From: Eledone cirrhosa | Lineage: Eukaryota | Direction of reading: 5' to 3' | Length of the DNA stretch: 64,000 nucleotides | Assembly: GCA_964016885.1 (NCBI GenBank) | Contig: OZ024740.1 | Location: 285,324,001-285,388,000, forward strand | Notes under the pieces: generated by a model | What the model was told of the DNA's origin: nothing | Database searches by the model: none | The model's input: the letters and a program-made list of their open reading frames with translations, nothing else | Part shown: piece after piece, positions 10,385 through 38,090 of the stretch | How positions within the stretch are numbered: the first letter of the stretch is position 1 | How the letters are laid out: each line of letters starts with the position of its first letter | Program-made: the position numbers and the translations under genes

Positions 10385-10510
10385 AGTTTTAATATAGATG
10401 AGATTCTACAGGACTAGAACTGTTTCATTCTTTAGAAATCATCAGATTCCTGAGGATTTCTAAAGAATGAAACAGTTCTAGTCCTGTAGAATCTCATCTA
10501 TATTAAAACT
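10385..10510. repeat. Perfect 56-bp inverted repeat with a 14-nt spacer
   Basis: 10385-10440 is the exact reverse complement of 10455-10510. Confidence 0.97.
10444..10494 (+). ncRNA. Type I hammerhead ribozyme-like motif (Penelope-like pseudo-LTR remnant) inside an MRPL3 intron
   Basis: Stem I AGAUUC/GAAUCU; core CUGAGGA; stem II U-UUC-UAAA-GAA-U; GAA; stem III ACAG/CUGU with loop UUCUAGUC; cleavage triplet GUA ending at 10488. Folded by eye. Confidence 0.6.
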
Positions 10511-10601
10511 TTTATACTCTGCAATGTATTGAGTACCTTACTTACTGTGGTTACCTCCGATTCAACCCGGAATAACGTATATATATATATATATATATCA
10601 T

Positions 10602-10633
<32 letters not shown>

Positions 10634-11129
10634 GTGTGTGTGTGTATGCATGTATGTATGTTTGTATTTATTTATGTATGTATGTATTTATGTATGAATA
10701 CGTATATATGATTGACAAAGGCATATATTTATATTTTCTCACAATTTGCTATAGAAACCGATTTTGTTTTATTTTTAATTGACATACTCCAGTCAAGAGA
10801 TATTTCCTATTTAATGAATCTAATGAACACAATGCTGTGAAATTTCATTTGCATCGTGATAATTTATTGAGAATATATACATTGTATGTATACATCATAT
10901 GTCATCAATTATATATAACATCTTTTTCATCCGAGAATAATGTTAAACCAAACCAAAAGCCGCGAAAACATATCTGAGTGAACATAATTCCCATTTATAT
11001 CAATCTTATCAACATTATTACTTATTTTCAAACAATTTACATCTTGAAAATAGGAAAGGTGTTCAAGTTATTTAGACAATATCTGAAAATTGTTAATAAC
11101 ATTAAATTAGTTAATAGATATTTTATTTG

Positions 11130-11480
11130 ATACTTAGGAATTCAGTATTCGTGCCAGCCCTTACCTATGGCCATGAATCTTGGGTAATGACCGAAAGAAT
11201 ACAAGCGCGAATACAAGCGACCGAAATGGGGTTCCTCCGAAGGGTCTTTAGAGTAATGTTACTTGATAGAGTGTGAAGCTTGGAGATCAGAGATTCATTC
11301 CAGGTTGTGCCACTACTTCTCTGAATTGAGAGATCACAGCTCCGATATTATGGGCATGTGGTTAGAATGTCTCAGGAAAGAATCATTGAACTGATTTTAT
11401 GGGAAAAACTGACCGGCAAGAAACCCAGGGGTGGGCCCCGAGCAAGATGGTTGGATAACATCCATGAAGACTCTGCCCCC
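11130..11480 (+). mobile_element. RTE-clade LINE 3' fragment, same family as 44830-47300
   Basis: Translation has LTYGHESW, EMGFLRRV, SQLRYYGHVVRM and KKPRGGPRARW. Confidence 0.8.
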
Positions 11481-12208
11481 ACGACCCTCTCAGGAATAAT
11501 TGGTCGAAGAAGAAAAAGAAGACTTGGGGAAATGATTAATAGTCAAAACAAAACGGAAAGTATTGTTAAATAGATGTAAATTTCTACTCTGTTATATCAT
11601 TGTATTCTGTAACATCGTCTTCTGATTCAAGGTACAAATATATATAGAAACATTGATATTCATTTTCCCAAGATATATATTTTGAATAGATTTTGAGAAT
11701 AAATATTTACAGTAATTTATTACATTCCATTGGCGTAAATCCTTAAATCAGATTCCCATTAGGATACTATTTTCTAACAAACTCTACATCTATATCAAAT
11801 AAAATTATATTTATGTCAACAATTACAATAACTTTTCTTGAACTATACAATAATGTAATTATTGACAGAAAACAATAGTTTCTTTCTTGCATGCCAATAG
11901 ATTCCATGGTGGCACTACTATGTCACCAAAGACAGTCTTTGTATTCATTTACTTGTATCACATTTCTGGCATTAAAAAAATAATATAATTATTTTCAAGG
12001 TTGTTGTGATTAAAAATGTCTTTTTATCTGCCTAAATATTAAAGAAGACATTGCAAATAAAATGTGTCAACCATCTTAATAAACCCCAAGTAAATTGTAT
12101 GAGAATAAAATTATCAAATAAAAATGGAATGGAAGTATATATGTTGAGAAATATCTTAGATTTTACAATTTCTGATTTTCCTTCCTTCTTTGATTTCCTC
12201 GTTTATAG

Positions 12209-12451
12209 ATATGGCGGATTAATACAAAATACAATGTTTTGTATGTAAGTGGAAGTAACATCCCTGGAGGTGTTCATTCATTCCTCAGAATCACAGACAC
12301 AAAATTACCTCATAAAGAAAAACCTGAAGATCCACCAAATATGCCAACATGTTTTTTTGAGGACCAAGCTGAAAATCTACCCGAAAATTTGTATGATGAT
12401 GATTTATTTGACTTCACAGAACCATCATTAATATTTCCTGATGAATCATAG
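12209..12451 (+). CDS. MRPL3: MRPL3 terminal coding exon (IWRINTKYNVLYVSG...EPSLIFPDES*)
   Basis: Acceptor gtttatag. WRINTK.N..YV.G and LPE.LYD resemble the MRPL3 C-terminus. TAG ends at 12451. Confidence 0.96.
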   Translation: MWRINTKYNVLYVSGSNIPGGVHSFLRITDTKLPHKEKPEDPPNMPTCFFEDQAENLPENLYDDDLFDFTEPSLIFPDES

Positions 12452-12478
12452 ACTCGATAAAGATGCTAGAAATTGTGG

Positions 12479-12484
12479 AATAAA
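12479..12484 (+). promoter_or_regulatory. Polyadenylation signal AATAAA of MRPL3
   Basis: AATAAA 27 nt after the stop, ATTAAA about 20 nt further on, then T-rich sequence. Confidence 0.65.
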
Positions 12485-13879
12485 ATTTTAGTTAGTTGTT
12501 TTATTAAATAATTTGTAAGAAATACTTTTTTATTTGTCTTTTTACTGGTTTCATTCATTGAACTAATGCTAAGTTGGAGCTCTGCTTTTAAAAGTATAAG
12601 CAAACATATCACCCATGCTAAGTTACAATACATAAACGAAGAACATTAGTTTTTAAATGGTGTCAGTGTAAAGACGTGTGTGTGTGTGAATGTATGTTTA
12701 TATATATATGTATACATAGACACACAAAATGTACCCAGTACACTCTGTAATCTGGTTCATCTTAGGAAGGGCATTTAGCCATAGAAATCATACCAAAAAC
12801 TGAAACATACAAGTAGGACATGATCCTCCCAGCTTGTCTTGGACTATAACTTTTAATAAAAACTGGCTTGGACCTTAACAACCCATCCAACCTGTTACCA
12901 GTATGAAAAATGGATATAAATGAGGATGATTATATATGATGGGCTTTTAGTTAGTTTGTTAAATTTCACTCTCAAGTCAGCTGGAAGATACTTGCCTATG
13001 GTGCCATGCAGTGAGGCTAAATCTGAAACGACATACTTTCAGACCAAACGTATTAATCACCCAGTCATGCCTACTTTTATTGATTATGTCTTACATACAT
13101 ACACCATCAACTTCATTAAAGTACTCACTAACTTGCATAGTTTTTATTCAAAGTTTCTGCTCTCCTAATCATATCTCTCCATTAGGTTGGCAGGAAGTTT
13201 GGCTAATAAGGGTCACTGAGAATAATACTTGTGATATGAAGGGAAGATTAATTATAGCTTGTACCTGGACTTACAGTTGCACTCTTTATGTGTACCACCT
13301 ACCTTGTGTACCAGGATCCTGCTCTGATTTGGATTCACTTCAACTTCCAGAGTCCTCTTCTCTATGCAATTTGGACAGAACCCTTTTCATATACTGCTGA
13401 GTTTCTTAGGTCAATTTCTACAGCTGAGATAGTATTATAAAGTCACAGCTTGGCATGGTATAAGGAAGGCTTAAGCTACCATGGGAGCTGTTGGTCTAAG
13501 GCTTCTGGTAGTTCTGCCTACGTTCTCAAAATCAGTTGAGAGGAGAGACATATTTCCTTACTAAGCTTATACTAGATTAATATTCATTAATTCTTAACAT
13601 ACTGTAATGATTTAGCAGAAAATATGTAAAAATGTGTGTGTTAATTCAAATGTTTATAGTATTTTTATTTGTAAACGGATCAATGTAAAAAAAATTGCAG
13701 CATTACAGTAAAGATTATAATTATTGATATGGTGCAATCATAGTGCTATTTTGTACTTTTCATGAATGTCTTGTTAATGTGGTTTAATGCTATAGGGGAG
13801 ATTAAAAATATATTCTCCTGATATGATCTCTCTTGCTCTGTCTGCCTGTCGCTCGGTATATATGTGTATGTGTATATTC

Positions 13880-14975
13880 TGCATTGAAACCTTTGAAGGT
13901 CACAGGCCTGTGGAAAGGTAATCTCACCATCTGCAGCAACTATAGAGGCATCTGCCTTACCCAAATTGCAGCATAGACTTACAATAGGATGATACAGAAT
14001 AGAATCAGATCATGCATTGACAACCTTTGTTCTAGCTAAATGGATTTCAGTCATTTCACTCTACTACTTCACATATCTTGACACTGAGAAGGGTTGTTGA
14101 GGAGTTATGGAATCACAAAAAGAAAGCAACAATCGTATTCATAGACTTCAAGAAGGCTTTTGATTCAATCGACCAAAAAAAGATTCTCAAAATTCTTCTT
14201 GTGTATGGGATACCCATCAGATTGTGAATGCTATGACTCATGTATGAGAATACTTCCACATTTGTAATGACCCCTGATGGAGATTCAGACTTATTCTCCA
14301 TCAATACCAGAGTCCTCCTGGGAGATCCTCTGGTTCCTTTCTTTTTTATGATCTGTTTTGATTATGCCATTGCACCATCAGACAGGATAATGCTGAAAAG
14401 TTGGCAAAGTATCAGACTTCTCAAGCAAGTGCTACCTAAACTGGCTTGTGTTGACCATCAAAGAAATTGAGGACAATTACACAGAGTAGAGGCTGCTGTG
14501 CAGTCCATTGAACTCTTTAAATGCTGACAAAACAAAATTCATACATCTCAATTTAACATCAAATGACCAAATGTATGTGCTAGATGGGTTGGAGATTGGA
14601 GAAGTAGATGACTTATACCTTGGCAGTTCCATGAACACAGACATAGAACATGATGTGGACACCAAGATAGGGCAGGCATAGGGGAACTCTCAACTCCTTA
14701 TCGATAGTTGTGAGTCATGGACATTAACAAAAAATTTGTCAAAGAAGATCAATGGTACATACATGCAAATGTTGAGAAAGGTCCAGAGAATCTTCTGGAA
14801 AGCACATGTAGCAAATAAATCACTCTACAGTTCACATTTTTGCTTTTCTCATATAAGGCAACAGAGGCTTACATTAGATGGACATGTGATACATCACAAT
14901 GAACCTGCTGGCAGAGTTGTTCTCTGGAAACTTGATGTATGCAGACGAGTTTGGAAATCAAACATGACACTGAGC
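13880..14975 (+). mobile_element. Degenerate RTE-like LINE RT fragment (second family)
   Basis: Translation has IVFIDFKKAFDSID, GVL.GD.L.PF.F-like, ESWTLT and RLTLDGHV. Confidence 0.75.
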
Positions 14976-16383
14976 AAAGCATAAATGAACTGAGAGAGAA
15001 ACTGGGCACAAGAGGAATCAGATGCAGTGTGCAGGAGAGGAGAATGCATTGGTATGGAGATGTGATGTGTATCACGAATGACAGCTGTATAAAAGGGTTC
15101 AGAGCACTGAAAGTTGACAGAAGCTATGAAGTAATAAAAGTTGACCTTGCACAATTGCACATCTCAAAGGCAGTGACACAAGATTGAGATTCCTGGTATC
15201 ATGCAGCAATACAGAAGACCTGCCTTCCCATATGCACAGGTTGAAACCCCTTACATCCCTACACTCCCACCCTTCACCAGACAAGTGCCCCACCTTAGAT
15301 TTAGCTCCAAAACCCCCACATACCTCCCCAACTCCAGCCCCCAGTCCACACTGTAGGTGTCATGACAAAAAGCACCCAGTTCACACTATAAATGTAGTTT
15401 GCTTTATGAAGGGCATTCAGCCATAGAAACCAAGCCAGAAACAGATCTGTATGAGCAAGACATGGTCATCAGATCTGGCTTGTTTCACAATGGGACAACT
15501 CATCTAACCCATGTTAGCATTGAAAAATTCATGTTAAACACCGCGATATATCTATATCATTCGTCATGTCTGTTTTCCCTGCTAGAAAGGGTTGGATGAG
15601 TCACCACAGACCAAACCAAGTCAGTACACAGGCGGAGCTACAAACCTCTCAGCTAGGTCAGGGACGTGCATCTTGCTGACTTACATTTTTAGACTATACT
15701 GGGTGCATTTATCATGTAGATCACCAATACTAGGGAGTTTGTTGTCTTTGACTCAGCTAAAAAGATCCTCCTGACCTTTTGTTTGGTAGGTTTTCTAAGG
15801 TTTAATGCCCTTCATATCACCAATACCTTTATAGGGTATATTGGGTACATTTATTGCGTAAATCACCAACACTAGGGAGGCTGATGTGCCTTTGACACAA
15901 TTAGAAAGTTTTCTCAACTCTTTTGGCATAGTTTCTACAGCAAGATACCCTTCTTCTCACCAGCCATCTCACAGAGTACACTGGGTACATTTCTTATGGT
16001 ACCAGCACTAGGGAGTTTTCAGCCCTACTCTACATAGTTAAGGTAAAAGGAGAGTTATGACTAGTGTGTTAGGATTTTTTTTTTTTTTTTTTTTTTGTGC
16101 AGATGAAATAGTATTAGACTGATAGCCAAAAGATTAATGATTTGTATAATTTGGGATACTATGTTTACTGCTTGTTCCATGGGAGGAAATGTTTTTATGC
16201 CCAGACTACCCTTGAAACTATCTTACTATTTAACTTGGAATTACTTTTCGAATTCAAAAGGTTGCAGTTTCCTGTAAAAGCTGGCTATACTATGTCCATA
16301 AATAAATGACAAGGACAAACTTGCTCTGTTGCTGGACTATAATTAAAAGAACATTGCTTCTTTTAGGGACAGGTTTATGTTGG

Positions 16384-16634
16384 CAGACCTGTCAACTCTC
16401 CCCGTCTGATGGGGAAATCTCCCACCCACTTTTGGATGGGTGAGAGAAGTCGTCTCTTGTGAAAATGGGGTTGATAAAATAAAGTACCAATAATACACTG
16501 AGTATTTGTGGCCTTGTGCCAAAAGTAGAAACAATTATGTAAAATATCCCCATTTTGCCTCATTTCTCCTCGTTTTGGGACACTTTTTCCCCCATGGTAC
16601 TCCCCGTTTGGGTTTTTAGAGGTTGACAGGTCTG
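16384..16634. mobile_element. Small TIR element (hAT-like MITE) with a SINE fragment inside
   Basis: 13-bp perfect TIR cagacctgtcaac / gttgacaggtctg. Flanks tgttgg / tgttga match at 5 of 6 (possible TSD). SINE tail at about 16467-16535. Confidence 0.55.
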
Positions 16635-17619
16635 TGTTGAGTGTATGAAATGGAAATTCATGCAACCTTTTTCTTTATACCCTTTCTGGATAAAAGACAT
16701 CACATTATTCAGAAGAAAGTTCTGGATTTACACTGAATTGTAAACAAAAGGTGACATATTGTCAGAATACACAAAGCGTATGAATAAATGATACGTGAAT
16801 TTGTATATAGCATAGCAAAAAAAAAACAAAAACGGGTGCATTTTCGTTTCAGGAGCGCTATAAAACAGAAATCTAGGGGAAGTAAAGTGAGTTATTGTGA
16901 AAATTAAGGTCAACTTTGCCTTCCATCCTTCCGGGACCTATAAGATAAAGTACCAGTTAAATATTGAAGGCGAGATAATCGACTTTCTTTCCCCCCAAAA
17001 TTGCTGGCCTCGTGCCGAGATTAGAAATTATTATATCCATAAGGAAGGCATAACTATTAGCTTCTCAAGTGTTTTCGTTATGCTTATGGATTTGAGAAAT
17101 TATATCATCCGCGTGTTATTCATTTACAAAAACTTTTATTTGTAGGAAAAAAAAAAATTACTTATCAGAAATCCCCTAATTCGACAGGTAAATGGTTTTA
17201 ATTTCATGGGGCCCCGGAAACGAATAAATGCTAATATATAACTTTCAGATCGTATAACACTGGATACCTTGCTGGTTTATATATTCATCGGTGATGTATT
17301 ATGATTGTTGTCAGAGCGTGTGCCCTTTGTGGTTGGTTATCGTAACGATAAAACCTGAAAACCTTTGCTGTTGCTTGAGGCGCTCTCTTGAAGCATTCCA
17401 AAATGTCTTGCGTGAATTACATCATTAATATGTATCTATTGAGATTGTATATAGCATTTAAAATAAACGTTAATAAATGCTGTCATATAAAATGCTAAAT
17501 TGACTACTGTAAACAACTGCTGATATTGTTAGCCTGCTTGCCATATTACTGCACCTATTGTACATTCATAGTTTACAGTAGGTGCACTATATGGAGTTTA
17601 TATAAATTCCTGTAGTTTT

Positions 17620-17775
17620 TGCTGTTTACTCAGAGATTCTGTGTTGATGCCAATTCTTCTCTAAATCATCCACAGATTCAGCTAGGTATTCCCACAGACA
17701 GCCTGTCTTAAACTCCGTACTATGACGTGGACAATATAATAAACAGAAGTGGTTTGAAAATGGAACCTTGATGGA
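17620..17775 (-). mobile_element. RTE LINE fragment
   Basis: Minus-strand translation EFKTGCLWEYLAESVDDLEKNW matches the RTE at 50215-52640. Confidence 0.7.
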
Positions 17776-18253
17776 CATCGATCTACCTGTTGACTTTTTC
17801 GCATAAAAGATATTAACAAAATAAAAATGATATAAATGAAAACCATCAGAATGCTGTAGTGATGTAAATTCATGAGGCGCTAACAGAATTTTAGGAATGC
17901 AAGGGTGGTTAATGAATGCAATAAATACGAATCTATACAGCTGCATACTGTTTGAAGACTGAAATGAAAATTTAAAAACTTGATAATGAGAAAGAAATTT
18001 TGGAGCGATGATAATGGGGACATGCGGTGGTTTTCTTTCTTCTTTTCTTTTTCTTTCCCTTTCTCCACTTTCTTTTTCTCTCTGATTTACATATTAGTAT
18101 TTTTACCCTGCAAGAAGTCACCCCCTCTACATCGTATTTTTTGTTGAAAATAAATTTATTTCATTCATTTCTTCTTTTTTCACTGGTTCACATCACTTCC
18201 CACTGTGGTTTTTCTATATAAACTGTCTCTATATTCTGAACATTTAGTTATAT

Positions 18254-18290
18254 CTGATGACTGTAAGTACTCAGGAGAAACTCCAGAGTA
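18254..18290 (+). ncRNA. Degenerate hammerhead-like motif
   Basis: CUGAUGA, CUG/CAG stem, extra GA, GAAA, then ACUC-CA-GAGU and A (GUA triplet). Stem I is not recoverable. Confidence 0.35.
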
Positions 18291-18924
18291 ACAAAATTCT
18301 AACTTGGCCTTAATATAGAAAATATTAATCTCTACTATGGTATGAAGTACTCATTCTCGAAACCGCCAATACTAAGCACCCCTTTTGGTAGTAAATCGTA
18401 ATAACGAATGTGTTTTCATAAATTTGTTAACGAATTAAAGTATGTCAACAAAAATTACGAATAAAAAAAGGAAACGAAGCATAATTACAGTTTAGTGACT
18501 CCACCTTGAATATGTTGGCTCATAACTTTCTTAAGAATGCATATTTTTAATGAAATTTTGCAGAAATACTTTTTCCACGACGTAGATTGCGATTATTTTA
18601 ATGGAAAAACAAACAAACAACAACAAAAAAGATTAACTAAATTGTAAGTGTCAATCGTTACTTCCACACTCTATGTTATAATTGTTGAGTTACGTAATTC
18701 TCTAAATGTTTGGAGCAATCCAAAACAATCACTGTATTACTATGGGGAATAGAGAGGTTAAAGCATTGAGATAGCGAAACACCCTTACGAACTTCATCTG
18801 ATAATTCAGTTAAGTCGAGCAGTCAACAATTACAAAAACTTTGTCAGCCGTCCAGCTTCCTCGAACATTACGAATGCCATAGGGTAAAAAAAAATATTTT
18901 ACAGAATGAAAATATCTACAATAC

Positions 18925-19830: not shown

Positions 19831-20170
19831 TGAGGGTATATCAATTTAGGCTAGCGAAGTGAACTGCATTTAGTTGACATGGCAATGCATGAAAACAGTC
19901 GAAATCAAAGTGTGCCACATCTTTAATCTCCCACAGATATAGGTCTCGATAGAAATACGGAGCCAATCCGATGTCTGCCATAGGCAAATCAACTGAACCC
20001 CTCGAAATGTTAGCATTCGCAGAAAGTAGGTGATATCTTGAATGTTGATATGGGGTAATTTTCTTCTTTTCTATTCCACCGTGGTCAATTCTGCCTTCCA
20101 CCCTTCGATATAATCGACCCCACCCCCCCACACAATTTCTGGCCTTATGTCGAAATTAGAAATCATTATT

Positions 20171-20306
20171 AACGGCCCTTTATGGTCTGAGTTCAAATCC
20201 CGCCGAGGTTAACTTTGCCTTTCATCCTTGCGGGGTCGATAAAATAAAGTATCAGTAATGCACTGGGATAATTGCTGGCCTTGTGCCAAACGTAGAAATA
20301 ATTATT
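20171..20306 (+). mobile_element. tRNA-derived SINE (abundant family)
   Basis: B-box gagttcaaatccc and tail ggccttgtgcc..gtagaaa.aattatt. Other copies at about 16890(+), 20075(+), 20424(+), 22229(+), 23475(-), 24325(-), 33757(+), 36355(-), 36983(+), 52880(-), 56320(-), 59055(+). Confidence 0.85.
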
Positions 20307-20829
20307 ACGTTAAAAGACCAACGAGTGGGTCTTACTTTTAAGTTGGTACAGGTTACTTCTCGATAATATATTACCAATTAAAAAATAACCACAGGGATTA
20401 GTTACAATGACTAAGTACAATGGTCAACGCCGAGGTCAACTTTGCTTTTTATCCTTACGGGGTCGATAAAATAAAGTACCAGTAATGTACTGAGTATTTG
20501 CTGGCCTTGTGCCAAAAGTAGAAACAATTATTACGTTAAAAGATCATATGATTGAAATATCGATTCTATCGTCATCCTATATAGTTATAAAGGTTTAGAA
20601 AACAATTAAAATAAGGATTTTTTTTATTGTCAAGTATAGTATTTTGTAAACAGTAATATATATTTTAGACATTTGGCGTCGTATAAATAATCACTTATAT
20701 TCTATCTCTTTAGAACACCATGAAAATATTGCTGTCACATCATTAAGAAATTACGTTAGTAAACAAACGAAATAAAAACAAATCGTTATCTAGGAAATAC
20801 AACTCTGCAGGTTTTAAAATTACGTTTTT

Positions 20830-20892
20830 ATTGACCAATCAGCGACGTGTAGATATTTAGTGCATATTTTCATAATCTGACATGCGCAATAC
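20830..20892 (+). promoter_or_regulatory. Candidate promoter elements
   Basis: CCAAT box in gaccaatcagc, a gacgtg site and an NRF1-like catgcgca, in CpG-retaining sequence about 300 bp upstream of a candidate first exon. Confidence 0.3.
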
Positions 20893-24689: not shown

Positions 24690-26830
24690 CCTTTGTAATG
24701 AATGCATCACCCAACATAGTTTAGTGATTAGTGACATCAGTGAGAGCAAGATGGATTCGGAAAGAGAAGACAATTTGGAACAGGAAGATAAGAAAGCTGA
24801 AAAAGACTACAATTGGGAGTTTCTACAAGACAATCTGCTCAATGCTACAGACCAGATCTGTGGCTAAGGTAAGATAGATGACATGGTAGTTTAAAGTTAT
24901 GAAGATTAAAAGTGCCATTATGAGGAGATTGTATGGGAGAGAGATGGTCTACTCTATGTAGACACAATGGAGGGACTAACAATATAGTAGACAAAACAAT
25001 TAAGGATATAAAAGCAAGGAAGGCAGCCTTAATCATCAGGTACAGTTACTTAGATACTGAAAATATGTCATGGCAGGGTGCTCACATATATATTTATTCA
25101 ATAAATTGGTACAAAATGGTGTCATATCCAATGACTGGCATAGTAGCATTGTCAACTGGTACAAAGGTAAAAGAGATACATTAGAAAAAGGAAACTATAG
25201 TATCAAATTATCAGAACATGGATATATGCATTAACTATCTACACATCATTGGTTAAGGTCAGAATTAATTTAGGATGCAAAAAATATCTAACCAGGACAT
25301 TTTACTGTTAGCTACTGGTGAGATCTGGAGCAAGGAAGTAGCCAGATAAAAGGTGACCTGGTGGAGCAGCACTATAGACTGGGCCATTAAAGATAAAGAA
25401 GCAGGCATGGAAGGACTGGAATAATTGGAGCAGCAAAGAACAATATCAAGTAATTTTAAAGACGCTAGATGGCATTTTTACATAGAGGCCGAAAGTAGGA
25501 GGTTTGTCAGTGTCCTACAATGAAAGGATTAGAAGTGTGAGGTTTCCACATTGCAAAACTGTATCGGTGTAAATCAGGATGGCTATTGAAGTTAACTGTT
25601 GCAGGGTCATAGAAGCAATCGGGATAAAAAGTGGAAAAACTACTTGCCCATCAAAGATAGCCGCTGAGATGCTGAAATTATCTGGTGATGTAGGAGTTAG
25701 GGCTAGTCAATAGCATAGTCAATCAGGCAATAGATAATGGTGACATACCCAATGACTGGCATAGTATAATCCTTAACTGTTACAAGAGAAAAGGAGATAC
25801 TCTAGAAAGGAACAACTACAGAGGTATAAAACTGATGGATCTCGTTACGAAAATGATAGAAATGGTGTTAATGCAACCAACTAGGGATGAGTCATATTAA
25901 ATGAGATGCAGTTTGGTTTCGTACCAGGAAGGAGCACCGTAGATGTCTTCTTCTTAGTGAGACAGACACCTACAAGCCATGTGTCAGCTACTATATCTAG
26001 CTTTTGTTGATCTGGAGAAGGCCTTTGTTAGAGTACCACGTTTGGTTATCTGGTGGTCCTTAAAGAAACTGGGTGTAGATAAGTGGCTTTTGAGCAGTGC
26101 TAGCCATGTACAGTGGGGCTGTCAGGAAAATGAGTTAAGTGAGGTATTTAATGTGCAGGTAGGTGTTCATCAGGGTTCAGTCTGTTTATGTTTATTATAG
26201 TCCTCCAGGCCATAACAGGAGTTTAAGACTGGTTGCCCATTGGAAGTTCGGTATACTGGTTCTTATTGTTGAATCTGTGGAAGAATTAGGAGAGAAATGG
26301 GCTTACAGTAAATTTAGCAAAGACCAATGTTTTAGTATGTAGGAAAGAAGACAGGACACTTGATCTGGATACACATAGATACACAAAAAGTATAATACGA
26401 TTGTAGGCAGACTAACAGAAAAGTTAAATTTATATGTGAGAGATACAGAGGGAGAGTTAGTTGTAAAAGCTCCAGTGAAGTATACTTTTTCCAATCCTGG
26501 GAAAGCTCTATAGAGGTAATTGATTGCTTCTGTTACTTCGGTGACCTGATTAGTTGTGTAGGAGGTTTCTCTGTAAGCATGGTAGTTAGAATAAGTACCA
26601 ACTAGAAAAAGTTCGGTGAGCATGATGCATATGGATGAGGATTGTTGGGTGAAGAAGTTCCCAGTGGAAGGAAGTTATAATAAAAGAAAACCAAGCAAGA
26701 CTTCAGCGGGAGCAGATCTCAAAACACTGAATCTCACAGAGATGATGATTAAACGCAGTGGAGAGAGGCTGTGCTGGAAAAGATGTCTAACCCATACAAA
26801 CATGGAAAAGGAGACATAAAAAGGATGATA
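24690..26830 (+). mobile_element. Highly degenerate, internally rearranged RTE LINE
   Basis: Translation has LYLAFVDLEKAF.RVP, QVGVHQGSV and MDEDCWVKK. 3' tail catggaaaaggagacataaaaggatgat. Confidence 0.8.
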
Positions 26831-27735: not shown

Positions 27736-29599
27736 ACCTATTTAATCCCCCTATCAGCTTCATTTTCACTGCACATCTACCCTATGAATGACACTGGATT
27801 TATCTAACAATCTTCACCGCCCGATGCCCCCTCTCACACTCCTATTTTCTCTGTAATGCAGACCTCTTAACGGAAAGTATCTTTAGTCCTGTCCATACGC
27901 CACCGCCTTTGTTTGCCTATTCTCTCTACGCTCTTAAATCTATCCATTGGGTCACGCTGCATTGATTGAACGTGGGATAGTGAGTACCTTGTAGGTTTGT
28001 TAGTTCCAAGGCACACTCCCTAGTGTTAGTGCCATAGTAAAATGCACCCTGTATACATTATCAAGTGATGACGATCTAACTGAAATCGTGTAAAGCTAAG
28101 AGGACCCTCTTTAGTCAGCCTGGGGTTGTATTTTCTCCTGTCCTGATAGCACATAAAAATGCACCATGTTCCCCCTGTAGAGTGGCAGTGCTACTGCCAC
28201 GATAAAAAGCATTCAGTAGACAATGTAAAGGGTTTGGAGTTAGGCAGAAGATCCTTCCGAAAAAGAAATACCAAGAAATGGGACATAGGAGCGAGATGAG
28301 GTACTCTGTATTCCCAAACAATGATACCTCCTCCATCCTAGCATAGAAAGTGGACGTAAAATAATTATGACGATGGAGGCTAGTTTACATTGCTCAAAGC
28401 CATTTTCACTAGCTAATACGTCCGTTATCTACATTTTCCTCGACCTGCTAAGAAGAGTTACCAGATCCCCCATCAAATCACAAACCACCGTCTTAAATAA
28501 AAGACACTGAATAGTTGCCAACCTAGATACAATATCTGAAAAAAAGATAGGATAGTCATGGCTGTATTATTCTGTATCCACATGTAGCTAGACATTTGCT
28601 ATTTAGTTCAATTGTTAATATTTATTTCTAGCTATTGCTTGCTCCTCGCAAGCATTCGTTATATATTCAAAAAAAAACAAGGTTTTTGAATATGGTGTTA
28701 TCAGACGCTGTGTTAACTCTCGTTCAACAACGTCAATCTATTCGGTTCTTGAATTTTGAAAACCATTTTATAGTCATTATAGTTCTGTTAAATAAACAAA
28801 TAAAATACCCAGTTATCTTCTTGTATTTGTTAACTCACTTCCTGTAAAATATGTATTGCTGATGAAATCAACAATTGTACGAACGAGAGTGAGAGTTTCA
28901 GCGTTATCACTTGACCTGCTAGAAATAACAGCTTAATCTTTATGAAGGAAAGACACATTAGATAATGTGTCGGCGATCTTTTATTTCATGTCGGTAAATT
29001 ATTTGAAATTAATAAAATGATTTACCGACAAAATAAAAACTTCAGAAATTACGAACTTATTTTTCCCCCCTTATTAAGTAGGGCGTACGAAGATAATGGT
29101 TAAAAGATTGGCTGAATAGATTAAACTAACCTAGGGTTGCTCTCGCATGATGATACATTATATTTGTTGTTTTGAGCTAAATGTTATTAAAGACATTCCA
29201 GCCGTGACTATTCCGTCTGTCTATATAGCCAGGGCTAGATTATCCAATGAAGACACCAGGGTATGATTTCAGGGAAATTTAGTTACTATTTATAGATGGT
29301 TAATCGCGTAGCGACTTCTTTGTTGGTTCGTTATTTAAATCAGCTGTCTTGTTTGACGCACGAACACAGTGCTTCCTTTGTAAAATGGTTCACTTATGTT
29401 GTTTTTCTTTGATAAAGCAAAAGTTTATTTTTAAAGTTAGAGTAGCTTATTATCATTCGTTCTGTTCTTAGCTATCGATATTAACAATCAAGTCGGTCTT
29501 ATCAAATATATCTTGACTGCTCCATATTAACATTATACAGTATATATATATATATAAATAAATATAAAAAGCCGTAGAGCAAATATTTATTATTTTTTT

Positions 29600-29650
29600 A
29601 ATTTCAGAAGATCCCGTTAAGGGTGAAAGCAGCGATTCTTTGCTTAAACT
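29600..29650 (+). ncRNA. Hammerhead-like motif with CAGAAGA core (copy 1)
   Basis: UUU/AAA stem I, CAGAAGA, U-CCC-GUUAA-GGG-U, GAA, AGCAG/UUGCU stem III, triplet CUU. Near-identical to 36600-36650. Confidence 0.4.
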
Positions 29651-30899
29651 TTAATCTTATCTTATATATATATATGTGTGTGTTATTTTTGCAGTGTGGT
29701 CGGACTATTTCCATCAGTAGTTGGCTACGTTTCACACACGCGTTTGGATATACAAACAAGAGAAAATGTACTCAAAATGCGTGCAGTGTATTTCTTCTTT
29801 AGAAGTAGATGGTTAATGCGTGATATAATGTGTAATCTTATTTAATTAATATACTGTTTGTAGTTATGTTTTGCTAGCTTTGTTTAATTTTAAGATATAG
29901 AAGGATACTTGTTTATAGGTACCAGTTGCACCGAAACAATTTAACATATTGAAATACTGTCGTATGAGACACCTGGTGTTAATAAAAATATTTTATTTAA
30001 TTTGATCACTTTTTTATGCTAAGATGTTTGAATTCCTCCCTATTGTCACTTCGGCCATCGCCTTTTTCATTTTGCATTAATTTTCTTTAATCATCATCAA
30101 ACATATATATACCCACTAAATTACGTTGATTTTGTTCTACTCATGTATCTATCTTCGAACTGGTATTTGCATTCGTATTTTGTTGTTGTTGCCTGAAGAT
30201 AGATACAGTTGTAAATATACATAAATAGTTAGTTATGGATAGACAGACAGCTCGGTAGACATACAAATGTGTTCTTCATATTTGATATTTTGTCTGTGTA
30301 TACATACATATATATATATATATATATAGGCTTAATGACTGCGACTATGATTAGTCATTGTCGAAAATGTAAATAGTTTGTTCTCAAATTCAAAATAAGG
30401 TTGGGAAATTTTATTGTTGCATTCCGTAGAGGCCTGCACCAGCTTAAAATTTTATTTTCGCATATCCTTAAATAGCGTGATTATATTTCATTTAACCAGC
30501 TATATCCTGATCAGCCCAGTTTTACAGTTTTTTTTATATGCACGCGCATTGTTTGCGATAGCTAGTATTACATTTAATAATGTTAATATTTCCAAAAACT
30601 CCCCCTAAAATTTATCCAATATTTAATTGACATTTTCTATTTGTTTTAAAGTACAGAATAAAGTCATACATGCGCATTCGTGTCTAGGCTAAATTTGTGA
30701 GGTCGACCATTACACGGATATTACTTTCGGGGGGCTGAAATTTAAATTGCAATCCCTAATATCGTTGTGAATAAATGTCAAATGATAAATTATAATACTG
30801 ATGTTTTTATGGATAAAAACACACTTCGTATTACTAAAACAGATAAAGCCATGCCGCTTTTATAAATATTTTCACTTGCATATATCAGGAAAAAACATG

Positions 30900-31650
30900 A
30901 TCTACAGATAAATGTTACCAAGACAGAGTACATGTCACTAAACCAAGAAGGTGGAAATTTTGTCACACTAGATGGCGGAATACAAAATAGAGTTGAAGAT
31001 TTTCTATATTTAAATGGACATGGACATTGGAATTTTTTAATTCAGGGCTGCAATGAACAAAATGGAAAGGATATAGAAGTCAGATTTACCCAGAAAAATC
31101 AAAATATTCTTGAGAACATCTGTTGAGTCAGTGTTGTATGGATCAGGTACATGGACCCTGACACAAGCATTTGTGAAACTAGACGGTGCATACACTAAAT
31201 GTTTAGGGTTGTACGAAACATAAACTGGCGTTAACGTATTACACATGAAAGTTTATACGGAAACTTGCCCAAGATAACAACTACAATTGCTCAAAGACGG
31301 TTACGATTTGCAGGACATTGCTGGAGAAGTAAACAGGAAGTTATACATAAGTTACTATTGTAGGAACCAAGTCACGGGAGACACAGCAGATGAAGACCTG
31401 TTCGAACCTTCATCGATTAACCCTCAGACGATACAAACCTCAATAGGGAACAGTTGTCAGGAGCAATGGAAAATTACTATTGTGGGAACCAACTCACGGG
31501 AGACCTAGCAGATGAAGACCTATTCGAATCTTCATCGTTTAACCCTCAGACGATACAAACCTCAATAGGGAGCAGTTGTCAGGAGCAATGGAAAATCGTG
31601 AATTGTGGAGAAACTTTGTTAGGAATGTTCGACTGTGGTCGCAAATGATC
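30900..31650 (+). mobile_element. RTE-like LINE 3' fragment with an internal ~122-bp tandem duplication (31352-31595)
   Basis: SVESVLYGS.TWTLT, LDGAYT and RLRFAGHCWR motifs; the duplicated block is visible directly. Confidence 0.7.
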
Positions 31651-31954
31651 ATGATATCGGGAAATAATAATTAATTTCTTCATAATAGCGTTTATGTCCA
31701 GAATAATACCTTCATTGACAAATCTTGGTCCGTAATGAAACGGGGTTGACTTTTACAAAAACGTGTGTATAAATATATATATATATATATAAATTTGCAC
31801 GTTAAACTGATCTATATTATATTTTATCTGTTGAAAGCACACCATAATTTAACTTGGTATCCTTGAAATATGTATAATGAAATAAATATGGTTTTATAAA
31901 TATAGTTTCCATTTGTTAATATATCGTATATAAATATATATATATATATGTGTG

Positions 31955-32190
31955 TGTGGCTTAGCGGTAAGGTCATGAGTTCGATACCACATTGCTCCAG
32001 TTCATTCAGCTAGAGAAAATGAATTGTATCTGTAATTCGAAGAACTAGCCTTGTCTCATTCATTGTCACGCTGAATTTTTCTGATAACTAATTAAGGGTA
32101 CACGTGCCTGTGGAATGCTCAGTCACTTGCACGTTAAATTTACGAGCAGGGTGTTCCGTTGATCGAATAAACTAAAAACTCTTAATCGTG
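31955..32190 (+). mobile_element. Second tRNA-headed SINE family
   Basis: A-box-like gtggcttagcggtaagg and B-box-like gagttcgatacc. Related heads at about 38640-38800(-), 59884-60000(+) and 62640-62760(-). Confidence 0.6.
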
Positions 32191-34416
32191 ACCGATAGAG
32201 TGCCAGTAATGGCTACCTGAATACGCAAATGTGTTTTTCACCCTCCCGTTCTTTCCTGAGATATACTGGTCTTTAAATTTGTGTTTGTAAACAGCTGGAC
32301 AGGAGTTGCCGTCCATGTTGTTGAAGCAGAAAATTTTCAGACTTGATTGACAATAAGCTGACATTTCCTTGACATATGTATTTATTAACTACATAGCATT
32401 TACTTCTGCTTTGCTACTTCAAATATTTTATTTTAATATCATTTTGACATTAATACAAATAGAATACTCACCACTGTAAATAAATACATTTGGAATATAT
32501 TTAGTCTTTATGTCACCACCACCGTAAATAAGTACTGTATTTATTTTTTGTTAATTAATTTTTGTTGTTGTTGCGTGAGTAACAGACATTTTGCAAGATA
32601 TCAACGTTATATATGACATAAGTACAGTGTCTGAGAGCAGCAATTCGTTTTCTCCACCAGCGATTGTTTACTAACATTGCTCATGCTTGCATTTGTTTTG
32701 ACCAGTCTTTACTTGCGTATTGATTTTATCGATGTTAGCATTTATCTTAACTAAAGTGTACATAATGTTGAATTTTTAAAAGACCCTGAGGTTGAAAATA
32801 TTTGAAGTAGAGAATTTCTGTGGTTAACTAATTGTAATAGTATCAAACACAGTTTAAACAATCTAGTCAGGTGAAATCATCTATTTGCTCTTGTTGCATG
32901 AATATTTTTTTCTGTAAACGAACAGTTGTATTCAAAATTTAATAGTGGATCAAATGTGGAAATAGATCCTTTAAATAAAAGTTTGAAAGATTTTATTTAC
33001 TTAATTCACTATTAAATATTACGGAAGTGGAGAATAGAGAAAATATAATTTAGTTGATTTAGAATATCTCTAGTCACCTATATTATTCAGTTAATTTTAA
33101 TACTCAATGTTTGATGTGGGAGAGAAAGTATATTATCAGAGCACTGTTTATTCAAAACCGAGATAACTTGTTATTACTGTGTTGGGAACCAGTTTAGGCA
33201 AATTCACACAATTGTGCTCGAGGGAATCTAAAGTCTGGTTCAGAATATAAGCAAATAGATGAAACAAAGACTATTCATAATAATATCTTGCTTTAACATT
33301 CTGGTATATGAGTTTATTATTTTCTAATTTTTACAAAGTTACAAAGGTTTTGAATATGAATATTCAGAATCATTAGTTTCTAATATAGACTTTCGTCCCA
33401 TTTCTGTATTTTTCAGATTTTAAGGACTAGTTCTCTTTTGAATTCACGTAGGTCTCTGTTGAAGTCCCAAGTTATCTTGATGGCCCCAAATCAGACGTGT
33501 TGCGTTTTGTTGATCTGAATGCTGATTTTGTGTTCGTGCTTCAACATAGGAAAATTGTTGATATATTTGTTATTTGTTTCTTTCCAGGAACATGTACTGG
33601 CAGATATCTTTTATTTTCTCTTTAGGAATAACATTCCACGTGTTAATGACTTCACTGAAAAAAAAAAAATTTCCATTGATAAAAAATAATCTTGTATTAT
33701 ATGGAATTATATTACATTTTTACCATCTTTCTATTTAGTATTTCCATTAATTATTATTCGAGTTCAAATCCCGCCGAAGTTAACTTTGCCTTTCATCCTT
33801 ACGGGGTCGATAAAATAAAGTACCAGTAATACACTGGGTAATTGCTGGCCTTGTGCCTAACGTAGAAACAATTATTATTCAAATCTATAATCTCGTCTAG
33901 TAGGCATAATTAAATTTCAGATTTGGTAAGATCAAAATATAAGCAATAACATAATCATAGCTGGTGATTTCAATGGCACACGGGTGTACAAGAAGCCTGT
34001 TATTATGTACAGACAGGCAACAAAACATGGTGGCTTGCTAGAAGTTGTAGGTATTTTCTTTTCCGTAGAAGATCTAATTAATTTTGGAAGAGGTGGATGA
34101 AGTTTTATTAGAAGTATTATTTAGTAGTTGGAACAAAAGGTTTTTCTTTCTGTAGAAAGCTGTGATGCTGAGGATTTGTTGAGATTGAATTTGATCCATT
34201 AGGTGAAACAAGTGGTAATATGCTAAAACAACAAACTCAACCAATCCATATTAGCATACAAAAACTAATGTTAAAAGGACGATGAATGTGGTAAAACGGT
34301 AATTAGAGTAAGTTAAATCAAGCCCAAATATTGGAAATAATTTTTTCTGAATAGAAATTATAGTTGAAGTAGAAGTACATAGCAATGCCTAAATATTGTA
34401 GCAAAGTAACAAGACA

Positions 34417-35635
34417 GTGGGTGGATTTTGAGGGAGACTTGTCTGTTATTTCTAACATGCCAAGCTATCACACAGAGGTCCTATTTATTGATTCATATAG
34501 ATGTACATACACAAGAGAGTAAAGTGTAGTTTGAGGGAAACTTTGCTGCTATTTTTAACATTGTAGAAGCTTCCTCGTTTGCTAATAGGGTGTGATTTGA
34601 AGAAGACTGCTATTTCTAGCAAAGCATGCTACCACATACAGGTTTCCCTATGCAAATATTACTCGAGTGGTGTTGGGGGTAACCACAGTTAAAAAAGGTA
34701 CTCATTAAGTTGGCAGACCGTAGACATCTTTATTAATGAAACAGTTCTAGCCCTGTACAAGAAATTTACACACACACGTGTATAAAAGGTAAACAGAAAT
34801 AAAGCAAACGACACCGTACAATGAAGAAACATAGTATGTAATACACCAAAGACTAAGGTAAAATTTAAGGGAGATTTAGCTGCTATTTCTCACATGCCTA
34901 TTCCATTGGCTGATAATGTATACAGAAGACGGTAGGGCGTGAATTTGATGATTTGGTTTCTATTTCTAACAGGCTGATATGTGTTAGAGGCTTCCTCGTT
35001 GGTTATACATATATAAACATAAAACAATGTGATTTAAGGGTGATTTGGCTACTATTTTTAGCAGATTGTGTTTTCACATAGAGCTCTATTTTACCGGCTT
35101 TAATAAAGACAAAATAAGGAAAATGTGATTTGCTATTCTATCAGCTTTAGCCCACATGCAATGTCCCCCCCCCCCCCCCCCCCGAATTAAACATTTATGA
35201 TGAAAGGTATTTTTAACCGTGACCACCCCACGCTTTCCCCAGACACTATGCAATGGGAACTTACGCCATGCATTTTTGTTTTTTCTTTCTGAAATAACTT
35301 CATATAGTATGGTTGTCTTCATTGTTGGGCTGATTATACTTATGTTTTTGATGCTGTTATCACTGTCGTTGTTGATGTTGTTTAGCTAGAATTTGGTAAG
35401 TCTACAGTTAAAAAGCCTTCCGATTGTGACCATACTATGTTTGCATTATCTATACCTGTTATTATGCAGTTGGCTGCTATTTCTAGTGCGTTGAGACATT
35501 TGCATATATGCTCTCTCGCTGACTCAATTTCATCTCTGATGGAGCAGACTTGTTAAATATGTTAAGATACTATGACATTTTTGGCTGGTATTTTTAGCAG
35601 ATTGAGATATTACTTAGAGGTTCTGACATTGGCTC
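34417..35635 (+). repeat. Cluster of about 8 same-orientation degenerate copies of a ~65-bp module
   Basis: Consensus-like gtgtgatttgagggagatttggctgctatttctagca...tagaggcttcctcgttggct at about 34417, 34523, 34588, 34857, 34935, 35027, 35468 and 35577. Confidence 0.7.
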
Positions 35636-35972
35636 GATAATAAGCAAATAAATTTAGAAAACTCTACAATTTGTAGAGTTAGGTAACTTTCCTTTTGTCT
35701 CTTAACATATTTTCGTTTTCTAATCTTAACCACTCTCTCTTTACACCCTTCTTTCCATGTGTGTCTCTCATTCTCTCTTATTTTCTCTTTTGTGTACTCT
35801 TCGCATTATTTTTTGTGTCTAACCACCTCTTTCCATAGAGAGCGGAGCAAGGGAGATAACTGTAAGACAACATTGTCAGATTTTTCAATAGGAAATACGA
35901 AAAATAAAACTTAATTTAAAACCATTGCTGCATTCATTATGTATCAAAATTATAAATACAAACCTTCCCTGT

Positions 35973-36011
35973 GAGATGGCTGATTTCATTATCGTCATCA
36001 TCATTATACGA

Positions 36012-36059
<48 letters not shown>

Positions 36060-36811
36060 TTATTTATTTATTAAAATAACAGATTAAAGTTTAAGCAAAG
36101 AATCACTGCTTTCACCCTGAAACTAAAAAAATCAAAAGAATTTAAATCTACGACTTCAGTTATACCATTTACGTGGTTTTGTTTTTGTGTGTAATTGTTC
36201 TCACCGGTCCACATATGACGTATTATCTTCGTTTTTTTCCGTTCATTGCCAGAGAACGTCTCCACGAACCACCTAAGAGAATATTAGTCTACGACTTCAT
36301 TTATTCCATAAACGTGGTTTTGTCTTTGCGTGTAATTGTTTTCACCGTTCCAAATAATTGTTTCTACTATTGGCACAAGGCCAGCAATTACCCAGTACAT
36401 TAGTGGTACTTTATTTTATCGACCCATAAGGATGAAAGGCAAAGTTAACCAAAGTTCCAAATAATGACGTATTATCTTCGTTTTTTTCCCGTTCTTTGCC
36501 AAGGAACGTTTCCACGGACCAAAGTATCGTCTTCCTGTCTTCCGTCGGTTGCAACGTTTTTCGAAATATTTACTTCTGCGTTCACAGATTGATTTTTTTA
36601 GTTTCAGAAGATCCTGTTAAGGGTGAAAGCAGCGATTCTTTGCTTAAACTTTAATCTGTTATTTTAATAAATATTTGCTCTACGGTTCTTATATATTTGA
36701 TATATATTTATCCTTATCGAACCCTCTTTGGATTTTAGTCTTCAAATTTATTATTATTACTATATATATATAATCGTATAATGATGACGACGATAATGAA
36801 ATCAGCCATCT
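35973..36811. mobile_element. Foldback remnant resembling a Penelope-like pseudo-LTR pair, with a nested SINE
   Basis: 35973-36013 is inverted to 36771-36811, and 36062-36133 is inverted to 36590-36672. Direct duplication 36146-36270 / 36288-36520. The SINE is flanked by 12-bp TSD gttccaaataat (36347-36358, 36454-36465). Confidence 0.65.
36584..36659 (+). ncRNA. Extended type I hammerhead-like motif with CAGAAGA core (copy 2)
   Basis: Stem I AGUUU/AAACU extended by ACAGAUUGA/UUAAUCUGU across a U7 bulge; CAGAAGA; U-CCU-GUUAA-GGG-U; GAA; AGCAG/UUGCU; triplet CUU ending at 36645. Confidence 0.5.
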
Positions 36812-36982
36812 TATATATATATATATATATATATAATTACATAAATGGAGAAAGCTAATAGCGATACTCTGACCAATTCCAACTCACTCAACAAACATTA
36901 GGAAATACCGGAGTATATTCCCAATTAAACGTTTGGAGTGCTAACTATATTGTATTGTGTGGATAATTGGCTGTATTATTTT

Positions 36983-37167
36983 GTGGATTGGAAGTATCGG
37001 TAGAGGGTCGGACGCCATGCTTTCCAGCATAGTTACGTCCCTTTACGATCTGAGTTCAAATCCCGCCGAGGTTGACTTTGCCTTTCATCCTTACGGGGTC
37101 GATAAAATAAAGTACCAGTAATGTACTGGGTAATTGCTGGCCTTGTGCCTAAAGTAGAAACAATTAT
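36983..37167 (+). mobile_element. Full-length tRNA-derived SINE
   Basis: A-box ttggaagtatcggtagag, B-box gagttcaaatccc and the family tail. Confidence 0.85.
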
Positions 37168-37635
37168 TTTATATGAGATATATTAAAGATCTCATTTCCC
37201 ATACGAATCGTTTCATTGTAAGATTTCTACATGGTGGGTGAAATTATACCAAGTTATGTAGAAACTTGTGTAAGATCAATGGATTCTTATGCAAGTGGGC
37301 TCTTACAAATCTTCGGTGGGTGCCCAATAATATTAATATTAATAACTAAATCAACATCAATATTTAGCGATAATCACCATCAGTGCTAGAAGGAGTTTTT
37401 AAGTTGTAAGTCCAGCAGTTCGAAAGAAAATCTCACACTGTCCCCAAAATGGGAGGAGGAGGCTACCGCGAAAAATAATACACACGCAGGTCATTGAACT
37501 CTGACAAGAATTCAAGCCTCGTGTGAAGAACTCAATTGGATATGAAAAAATAAATATGTGTGTACTGTTTAAGGACACATAGAAATATTTTCTCAGACAA
37601 AATATCAGATATGAGATACAGGAACAAACGATCAA

Positions 37636-37874
37636 TATTCATATAAAAAAATAAACAAAGAGAGTCATACCTTATATCAGGAAAGTTCATGTCTGGTGAT
37701 CCAAGAGTATATTACTTAATTACATAAACAGAGAAAGCTAATAGCGATACTCCGACCAATTCATATAAAAAAATAAACAAAGAGAGTCATACCTTATATC
37801 AGGAAAGTTCATGTCTGGTGATCCAAGAGTATATTACATAAACAGAGAAAGCTAATAGCGATACTCCGACCAAT
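37636..37874. repeat. ~120-bp tandem duplication with a partial third copy at about 36835-36880
   Basis: attcatataaaaaaataaacaaagagagtc...gaaagctaatagcgatactccgaccaat occurs twice. Confidence 0.85.
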
Positions 37875-37972
37875 ATATATATATAACAAAGAAGGTGTGG
37901 TAAGATACCAGGTGGACCATAACGCTCCAGAGTACTCGATACTTACGGTAGTAGAGTGGGTAATAGGAAAAT

Positions 37973-38090
37973 AGTCAGGACCCCGACGGCTGAAATCTGA
38001 ACCCGGCCATTTTGACAGCTAGATCCGAACTGATGGCTTAGTTCGGATCTAGCTGTCGAAATGGTCGAAGCTCAGCCGGCAGTCCTGACT
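37973..38090 (+). repeat. Long GC-richer hairpin: 30-bp inner stem plus outer stems
   Basis: 38004-38033 pairs with 38038-38067 (27 Watson-Crick, 3 G.U). Outer stems cggctga/tcagccg and agtcaggac/gtcctgact. Confidence 0.9.

Follow-up and report, generated by a model that had tools for sequence, protein, structure and literature searches.

What are the hammerhead-bearing repeats scattered along one stretch of the Eledone cirrhosa genome, and why do so many of them stand beside an inverted, shortened copy of themselves? The stretch (hereafter the window, 64,000 nt; C1:285324001-285388000 of the 3.0-Gb genome, contig OZ024740.1) had been described from its letters alone as holding at least four dissimilar families with a related downstream motif, read as ribozyme-bearing, non-coding remnants of Penelope-like elements (PLEs) or retrozyme-like elements. 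That count of families stands, with the loci at 29600 and 36600 falling into one of them: A (10385-10577, with a relative at 34675), B (18215-18377), D (29548-29657 and 36044-36760) and E (37886-38095). The expected recurrence of the motifs is also borne out, as all four families are genome-wide repeats in pattern counts covering the whole of that genome, with reversed-pattern controls at 0.

It is close to certain that these loci are the hammerhead and tail termini of four PLE families with Hydra-clade features, inserted in (TA)n. For the short head-to-head palindromes formed by such termini, we favor, with a probability of about 0.68, a reading in which they would be two cDNAs of one capped mRNA, begun at two internal starts that a hairpin in the tail would position.

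Tail hairpin and palindrome arms

Exact-pattern counts that allow a spacer of up to 30 nt give 2,024 short head-to-head palindromes in family A, 864 in D, 509 in E and 72 in B (at least 3,469 altogether), and the reversed-pattern controls gave 0 in every family. Longer inverted pairs occur besides these. Arms were analyzed in the first 50 palindromes listed per family, those of A and D being measured on the sequence and those of E and B read by eye. One tailed arm and one short arm make up 49 of the 50 A palindromes; in D, 26 of 50 combine a long arm with an arm ending at -2 or -3, and the other 24 are irregular. In the window, the inverted partial copies suspected at 10385-10445, 29548-29592, 36044-36135, 37886-38031 and 34675-34717 proved genuine, while at 18254 there is none: the sequence upstream of family B is that family's own promoter-like region, not an inverted copy.

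The downstream CTCTRC motif is present at the positions first noticed for it, but the hexamer alone is uninformative, with 63 occurrences in the window, and it was rejected as a stand-alone signal. The signal is the whole bulged hairpin of which CTCTRC is the 5' arm, with the layout RCTC-inner stem-loop-inner stem-2-nt bulge (TT, TC or TA)-GAGY-RC. In the tandem copies L226 and L235 the tail continues into the start of the open reading frame (ORF), and the tail is thus the 5' UTR of the next unit. Among the mined loci, in a list selected for at least two inner pairs, the bulged hairpin was found in about a dozen unrelated families; its first outer pair is A-U or G-C, its inner stems include TGC/GTA, TACT/AGTA, CAA/TTG, CAGT/ACTG, CGGAGT/ACTTCG, TAAGG/CCTTG and TGT/ACA, and G.U pairs are common in the inner stem. 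In an unselected set, 27 motif clusters are followed by (TA)n and 22 are not; at least three inner pairs are present in 15 of the former and 2 of the latter. Inner positions are paired in 57 of 81 cases, against a permutation mean of 41.6 +/- 3.3 (0 of 20,000 permutations), and in a 13-row alignment four of the seven pairs display two-sided changes, with 82% of cells paired versus 24-48% when the strands are slid. The possible second cis signal of the preliminary description thereby takes the form of a bulged hairpin that is real, with stems that covary across families, and which likely positions the start of the reverse transcriptase (RT).

Hairpins of this kind extend beyond this genome. Six new Hydra consensi in the supplement of PMC8557442, each read by eye over at least one end, contain a clear hairpin in three cases, namely Hydra-2_Amil (coral), Hydra-2_Ajap and, twice at its very 5' start, Hydra-1_Ajap (sea cucumber). 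Hydra-1_Crog has a partial hairpin and Hydra-1_Amil an unbulged one, as in loci L242-L245; none was seen by eye in the ends examined of Hydra-1_Obim. Seven loci were obtained for metagenome relatives, of which four hold one element with an unbulged hairpin and three are without readable ends. A literature search, with most subscription papers and Repbase outside its reach, returned no description of the tail hairpin or of cap-centred palindromes, and the terms 'hairpin' and 'stem-loop' are absent from the main text of PMC8557442.

The 3' ends of the short arms keep close to the hairpin and stay outside it. Relative to its first base, TA-joined ends lie at -12 and -5/-4 in A, -2 in D, -10 in E, -9/-2 in F, -7/-4 in G and -4 in H, that is, 2-12 nt before the hairpin in these six families. 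Only three ends (two in A, one in D) fall inside the hairpin among the classified arms, a classification in which 26 A, 42 D and 30 E arms stayed unassigned and B yielded 12 'other' arms and no usable ends; the spacing in B, by eye, is about 4-9 nt. The hairpin could instead act in DNA or at some other step, such as recognition of the tail by the endonuclease (EN) or control of translation in the 5' UTR, with the cDNA start being set only by TA-like microhomology. Such homology is indeed found at every start site, the hairpin does lie in the 5' UTR, and the D. virilis tail is needed for EN recognition according to work cited in PMC11167929. We consider this explanation unlikely, as the common G.U pairs of the inner stem suit RNA, the ends avoid the hairpin with a spacing of 2-12 nt in all six families with measurable ends, and PAc, the Anolis Poseidon element, requires an RNA motif and starts in a stem-loop (PMC11167929).

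At the other end of the arms, palindrome centres fall on an initiator-like A, often with a non-templated G before it. Among 100 family D arms, the A of TTAGTTT is the exact end point of 45; another 13 overrun it by 1-3 nt, none by more, and 42 are shorter. In 36 of these 45 arms the preceding base is G and the template reads T; 22 of the Gs sit in the spacer, and the other 14 belong to the partner anchor as well. At the -3 start, G precedes four of seven. In family A the ends of 49 of 100 arms lie no more than 1 nt from the A of CCAGATT, and a single arm goes beyond it; G precedes 11 of the 13 arms that end at this A, many of these Gs being readable as partner sequence. Family E arms end, by eye, at TTAGTT inside hammerhead loop II, with about 5-6 of 100 (hand count) running at least 5 nt past the A of TTAGTTC, and family B arms mostly stop by AGT(T)CTTGT. 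A TATA-like box is seen by eye about 30-33 nt upstream in A and B. Contigs from three runs of unspecified type were aligned to L235; in one, X4, depth is highest over the short-arm region, which could simply reflect copy number, and it was given no weight. The start sites of A, B, D and E presumably fit the initiator consensus, and an extra 5' G is the mark of a copied cap. Palindrome centres would then correspond to run-off at a capped transcription start. As the inferred start of family E lies inside loop II, only read-through tandem transcripts of this family would carry a complete ribozyme.

The same 5' ends could be produced by the hammerhead, through RT stalling at stem I or through cleavage, or by a YAG splice acceptor, with no role for transcription start. 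Stem I begins at the inferred +1 in A, B and D. The sequence at each of the four sites is YAG, which in A and D follows a pyrimidine-rich tract, and the D. virilis intron ends at helix I (PMC4209133). No end is found at the cleavage site, however, and family E ends inside loop II; the arms retain the AG, and no common upstream exon is present. We therefore regard this origin of the 5' ends as improbable.

Formation of the palindromes

A sequence of events starting from a capped mRNA can be outlined as follows. The GIY-YIG domain would nick both strands of (TA)n, and the protein bound at the hairpin would prime from both sides of the cut, each cDNA start sharing a short TA-like microhomology with the target. 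One cDNA would begin 2-12 nt before the hairpin and the other about 30-65 nt after it, at the tail end; both ends are seen in the copies, and initiation at them is what we infer. When the cap-proximal signal is used, synthesis of both cDNAs would end by run-off at +1 once 60-190 nt had been made, in many cases with the cap copied as one more base, and microhomology or fold-back repair would join the two head to head. Use of the signal of the downstream tandem unit would yield long or full-length copies instead. The template would be uncleaved RNA, in which case hammerhead cleavage would define no end. At window loci 29548 and 34675, where the tail is inverted, the hammerhead forward and no overlap exists, the same two primers may have acted with an early stop of the tail cDNA. 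This two-start, both-strand scheme applies by analogy the findings of Frangieh et al. on Poseidon (PMC11167929), which report for PAc in vitro two internal RT starts, extension of both strands and dispensable cleavage.

Both arms seem to derive from one template. Only three of 50 B palindromes are mixed at a subfamily site, versus about 21 expected (hand count), and a private variant is common to both arms in four of 50 A palindromes (L111, L129, L141, L146). An apparent rule that pairs an N7=G arm with an N7=T arm was discarded as an artefact of a G-containing query: the first 50 unselected A palindromes have N7=T in both arms where readable, except for one junction insert, and N7=G occurs in two of 100 long A arms.

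Shared private variants would equally be expected if a single nascent strand primed itself or folded back to give the palindromes, perhaps on an antisense template, with local structure setting the centre; an antisense-template or fold-back origin is put forward as a hypothesis in PMC3846280. Junction inserts that copy nearby sequence (L107, L108, L151, L095, L100) also speak for it. On the other side, the 3' ends of the two arms differ from each other, are specific to the family and both adjoin (TA)n; family E has its centre in a loop and not at the end of a stem; and in D the extra G is found at two distinct starts. Fold-back accounts for the joint, not for where synthesis stops, and as a complete explanation we hold it to be doubtful.

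Another possibility is that the palindromes propagate themselves as non-autonomous units of a MITE-like or retrozyme-like kind, a few masters being copied whole. There are thousands of near-identical short copies, and a tandem array of a 78-bp family A hammerhead unit fills all 9.9 kb of locus L232 (G000:C28:30630000-30639900). Yet this unit, which holds a hammerhead with both stem I strands, is without the tail hairpin. Moreover, the junctions differ widely among the 50 palindromes of each of A, D, E and B, and the short-arm ends vary, so that the palindromes point to formation at each insertion; copying from masters appears very improbable. The array may account for the strand skew of 3,618 versus 1,232, i.e. 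some 2,400 units; it is a retrozyme-like satellite that arose from a PLE pseudo-long terminal repeat (pLTR). The retrozyme-like character suggested beforehand would accordingly apply to this array and not to the window copies, which are not head-to-tail tandems.

Several observations weigh against twin run-off cDNAs positioned by a hairpin. Both a control of the starts by the hairpin and a run-off at the cap are read from the ends of genomic copies. Gene conversion, or subfamilies that were active in different periods, could also make the arms agree, and partner-arm or fold-back sequence could account for many of the extra Gs (14 of the 36 in D, and many in A). The palindrome hot spot is not exclusive, since up to 103 Mb of C1 100 A arms pass +1 and 58 stop there, and D and E are without a TATA box at -30. 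As for the hairpin, the clusters used for covariation are partly related, two of the 13 alignment rows are misaligned, and the outer CTC/GAG pairs belong to the definition of the motif. The hairpin is a weak one: the RNAfold minimum-energy fold is a different structure for A, B, E, G and H; family D fits it loosely, with an alternative register; and by eye families J and K have no bulged hairpin. Finally, three of the six published Hydra consensi are without a clear copy in the ends examined, and loci L242-L245 carry the unbulged variant.

Hammerhead folds, coding parents and clade

For the hammerhead-like cores proposed at 10444-10494, 18254-18290, 29600-29650 and 36584-36659, type I folds are readable at 10444-10494 (A), 18246-18298 (B), and 29600-29649 and 36600-36649 (both D), and complete type I folds can be read from long genomic copies. 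Family A combines a 6-bp stem I, a CUGAGGA core, a stem II of U.U plus 3 bp, a 4-bp stem III and a GUA site. Family B has an 8-bp stem I (decayed in the window copy), a stem II of C.A plus 6 bp, a 4-bp stem III with a 2-nt loop, and GUA. Family D has the core CAGAAGA (U4A), a 5-bp stem III and a CUU site. The U4A core is fixed in this young, high-copy family with intact ORFs, and could be either an active variant or a sign that cleavage is dispensable.

Family E differs from the initial account, in which a decayed core was placed at about 38030-38082. The CTGATGG at 38030 is a rare variant, present in three of the first 100 listed of 249 matches, most of which read CTGGTGG or CTGCTGG at this position, and it was rejected as a core. 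The real 5' half-core, UUGAUAA in seven of 10 readable long copies, lies about 45 nt farther upstream and belongs to a fold with an 11-bp stem II and a U3-A8 core. Both window arms begin inside loop II, and the window copy is without this half-core. The hammerhead is the minimum-energy fold of long family E (-34.9 kcal/mol), and it is not the minimum for A (-4.3 vs -8.5) or D (-5.6 vs -8.8). All four hammerheads are predicted ribozymes.

A relaxed core scan of the window gave five matches versus 0.9 +/- 0.7 in 30 local shuffles; four of the five belong to family A or D, the fifth (at 261) is unexplained, and the family B core was missed. The Rfam search of the window returned 32 matches at E<=5 with no hammerhead among them.

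The hammerheads had been linked to the minimal PLE type, which is marked by a G10.1-C11.1 pair and a vestigial stem III. They do resemble the minimal metazoan PLE hammerheads of Cervera and de la Pena (2014, PMC4209133) in their type I fold within the pLTR, and that paper also notes opposite-strand pairs and a U3-A8 covariant core, as in family E. Unlike the minimal type, however, A, B and D are without G10.1-C11.1: their stem II has a U.U or C.A base and their stem III 4-5 bp, which is the Hydra type. The stem III of A, D and E is 4-5 bp long with a real loop, and these three could fold as monomers. A and B agree with the Hydra type of File S2 of PMC8557442 (Craig et al. 2021), with D and E as variant cores. 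U.U at the stem II base and the stem III sequences ACAG/CUGU or ACUC/GAGU are shared with it, yet none of the four families matches a hammerhead row, the table holds one octopus family, and the D U4A and E U3-A8 cores are not in it.

Coding parents were found for three families. Family D copies come after an RT and GIY-YIG ORF (L038, L050; also L233-L235), with intact ORFs of 713 aa in L234 and in L235, a partial tandem; all 150 scored genome matches to the C-terminal 193 aa of the L235 ORF are 93-100% identical. Family A adjoins a related ORF (L226, L227), 52% identical to that of D over 574 aa. A sense-strand GIY-YIG C-terminus lies upstream in seven of 30 long E copies, two of which look like duplicates, and no ORF match was found beside B copies among the loci examined. 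Long copies of A, D and E thus abut PLE ORFs, and an origin as PLEs with an inverted truncated pLTR is borne out for these families, no such ORF link being found for B. Non-coding is a fair label for the window copies, as tblastn of the window with two family ORFs gave 0 matches, but not for A, D and E as families.

Read by eye, the A and D ORFs each form a single frame with RT motifs followed by a C-terminal IVY..YIG. Pfam support is weak (GIY-YIG at E=0.022 for A, no such match for D), other Pfam matches being weak or beside the point, and a PDB sequence search with the D ORF gave 0 matches. Homologues number 1,176 at E<=1e-20, nearly all unnamed, with RVT_1 and GIY-YIG clusters among the atlas neighbours. 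Both ORFs have SDKT (DKG changed to DKT), the CxCX5C linker, and CxxC and CxH flanking E and N, these C-terminal motifs occurring also in E, and RWR where an N-terminal RWK motif is expected. Between IVY and YIG there is one Cys in D and two in A, nine residues apart, which relates to the absence of CCHH as a diagnostic. Insertion into (TA)n, a Hydra diagnostic, is seen for the families. The D unit measures 3,259 nt core to core (L235), versus 'generally under 3 kb' for Hydra, and the A unit is longer because of a microsatellite in its 3' UTR. Neptune and Naiad were dropped, the EN being C-terminal (N-terminal in Naiad) and the linker CxCX5C, not the CX2-5CxxC that those two clades combine with CCHH. 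Placement in the clade would follow from these motifs, and the likeness to Hydra-1_Obim was judged by eye. The elements themselves are new families of the described Hydra clade. The initial observation is therefore partly confirmed and its interpretation supported, with the Hydra clade as a refinement by which the surprise it expressed is mostly explained.

The long TA/TG microsatellite of the family A 3' UTR has the same sequence as the target (L226:5700-6600; L012, L013, L023), and family A copies are nested in one another. About a dozen further type I hammerhead families are nested in the same TA microsatellites (L106:2156, L007:2881, L032:2659, L059:2193, L068, L021, L054, L027). The minus strand of L012 (1-1100) holds a further element with a C-terminal GIY-YIG; its 3' UTR is long, its core is a variant, and its stem II is of the minimal type, closed by GC. 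At L231:5630-6929, fragments of a different PLE (RVT_1 E=3.8e-05; CxxxxC between VVY and YIG) probably represent another clade. In L172 and L173, 0.9 Mb apart, a variant family A hammerhead inside identical larger flanks is probably carried by another repeat or a duplication.

Window loci, known systems and significance

Features of the five families seen in the window. Positions count from its first nucleotide.
Feature	Position	Strand	Remarks
Family A short arm	10385..10445	-	Inverted pLTR copy; hammerhead without stem I 5' strand; stops in (TA)n before hairpin
Family A hammerhead	10444..10494	+	Core 10450-10456; GAAA 10469; predicted cleavage after 10488
Family A inferred +1 A	10444	+	
Family A tail hairpin	10516..10536	+	Outer stem 4 bp, inner stem 3 bp, TT bulge
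Family A remainder of tail	10537..10577	+	Joined to (TA)n
Family B copy	18215..18377	+	About 80-85% to relatives; no inverted arm
Family B TATA-like box	18215		
Family B initiator-like motif	18244-18249		
Family B hammerhead	18246-18298		
Family B hairpin	18329-18350	+	One outer pair broken
Family B tail end	18377		
Family D fragment	29548..29657		Inverted tail start 29548-29592 (-); forward short arm with hammerhead 29594-29657
Family F short arm	31801..31926	+	Decayed core; flanked by TA runs; overlooked in the preliminary description
Family A relative	34675..34760		Inverted tail with degenerate hairpin 34675-34717 (-)
Family A relative, forward piece	34735-34760		Stem III and 3' part of stem I
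Family D insertion, single event	36044..36760		Short minus arm 36044-36135 (core deleted)
Family D insertion, long arm	36137-36760	+	Hammerhead 36600-36649; degenerate hairpin 36677-36723; tail end 36760
SINE-like repeat in family D long arm	~36352-36455		Splits the 3' UTR
Family E palindrome (37886..38095), tailed arm	37886-38031	-	Hairpin 37932-37957; tail end 37886
Family E palindrome, short arm	38030-38095	+	

The SINE-like repeat, of about 130-190 nt, is abundant (window 16479, 20180-20532, 22203, 33751, 36352, 37043, 52880 and 59030) and often sits within PLE termini (window 36352; loci L022, L046, L158). The window also contains a broken LINE-type RT ORF with a PHD-like finger at 50203-52624 (Pfam RVT_1 and PHD), with related pieces at 8172-8529, 25763-26116 and 40357-40606, and a minisatellite with a unit of about 48-49 bp at 53861-54805, with related copies at 4860 and 38525.

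Compared with known systems, the elements share with the Hydra clade (for example Hydra-1_Obim, Hydra-2_Amil and Hydra-1/2_Ajap; PMC8557442) the C-terminal GIY-YIG, DKT, CxCX5C and CxxC/CxH, together with (TA)n targets, the inverted truncated copy and a tail, which is about 70-90 nt long here versus 30-40 in that clade. The repeats of the window seem to resemble those of octopuses. The octopus Octopus vulgaris has a curated repeat library (PMC13282606) with 31 recently active Penelope-like families that may already hold these. As described by Frangieh et al. (2024, PMC11167929), PAc likewise has two internal RT starts that bracket the tail, AT-rich targets, extension of both target strands and an uncleaved RNA template. 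It belongs to another clade, however, and starts within the ORF in an AC-rich stem-loop, whereas the starts here are in the 5' UTR beside a bulged hairpin common to families and phyla. The main-text portion covered gives no account of cap-proximal palindromes for PAc, and supplementary Figs S1-S2 may bear on the stem-loop comparison. Non-LTR retrozymes (bioRxiv 10.64898/2026.07.22.740005) are non-coding hammerhead repeats from PLE pLTRs, which the 78-bp A array on C28 fits; unlike them, the copies in the window stand singly or head to head and not in tandem, and their parents are coding.

What remains beyond the known clade is the covarying tail hairpin across phyla and the large set of junctions. 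Whether an RT-positioning hairpin is common to the majority of Hydra-clade PLEs, in molluscs, corals and echinoderms alike, and whether palindromes form as twin run-off cDNAs of capped mRNA, is evenly balanced in our judgment. With thousands of insertion junctions, young ORFs that are intact, and a candidate cis element of about 20-45 nt whose covariation crosses families, this genome makes RT-start choice in PLEs and the formation of the inverted pLTR and the tail testable in vitro through point mutations. Annotators could also use the hairpin and the palindrome centre to classify ORF-less fragments and to locate promoters. PLE RTs are the sister group of telomerase, so an RNA element that sets the template start would be of wider interest. 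If the proposal is true, the hairpin is a template-start element kept across three phyla, palindrome centres map the transcription start of each family, and the head-to-head pLTR needs no antisense template.

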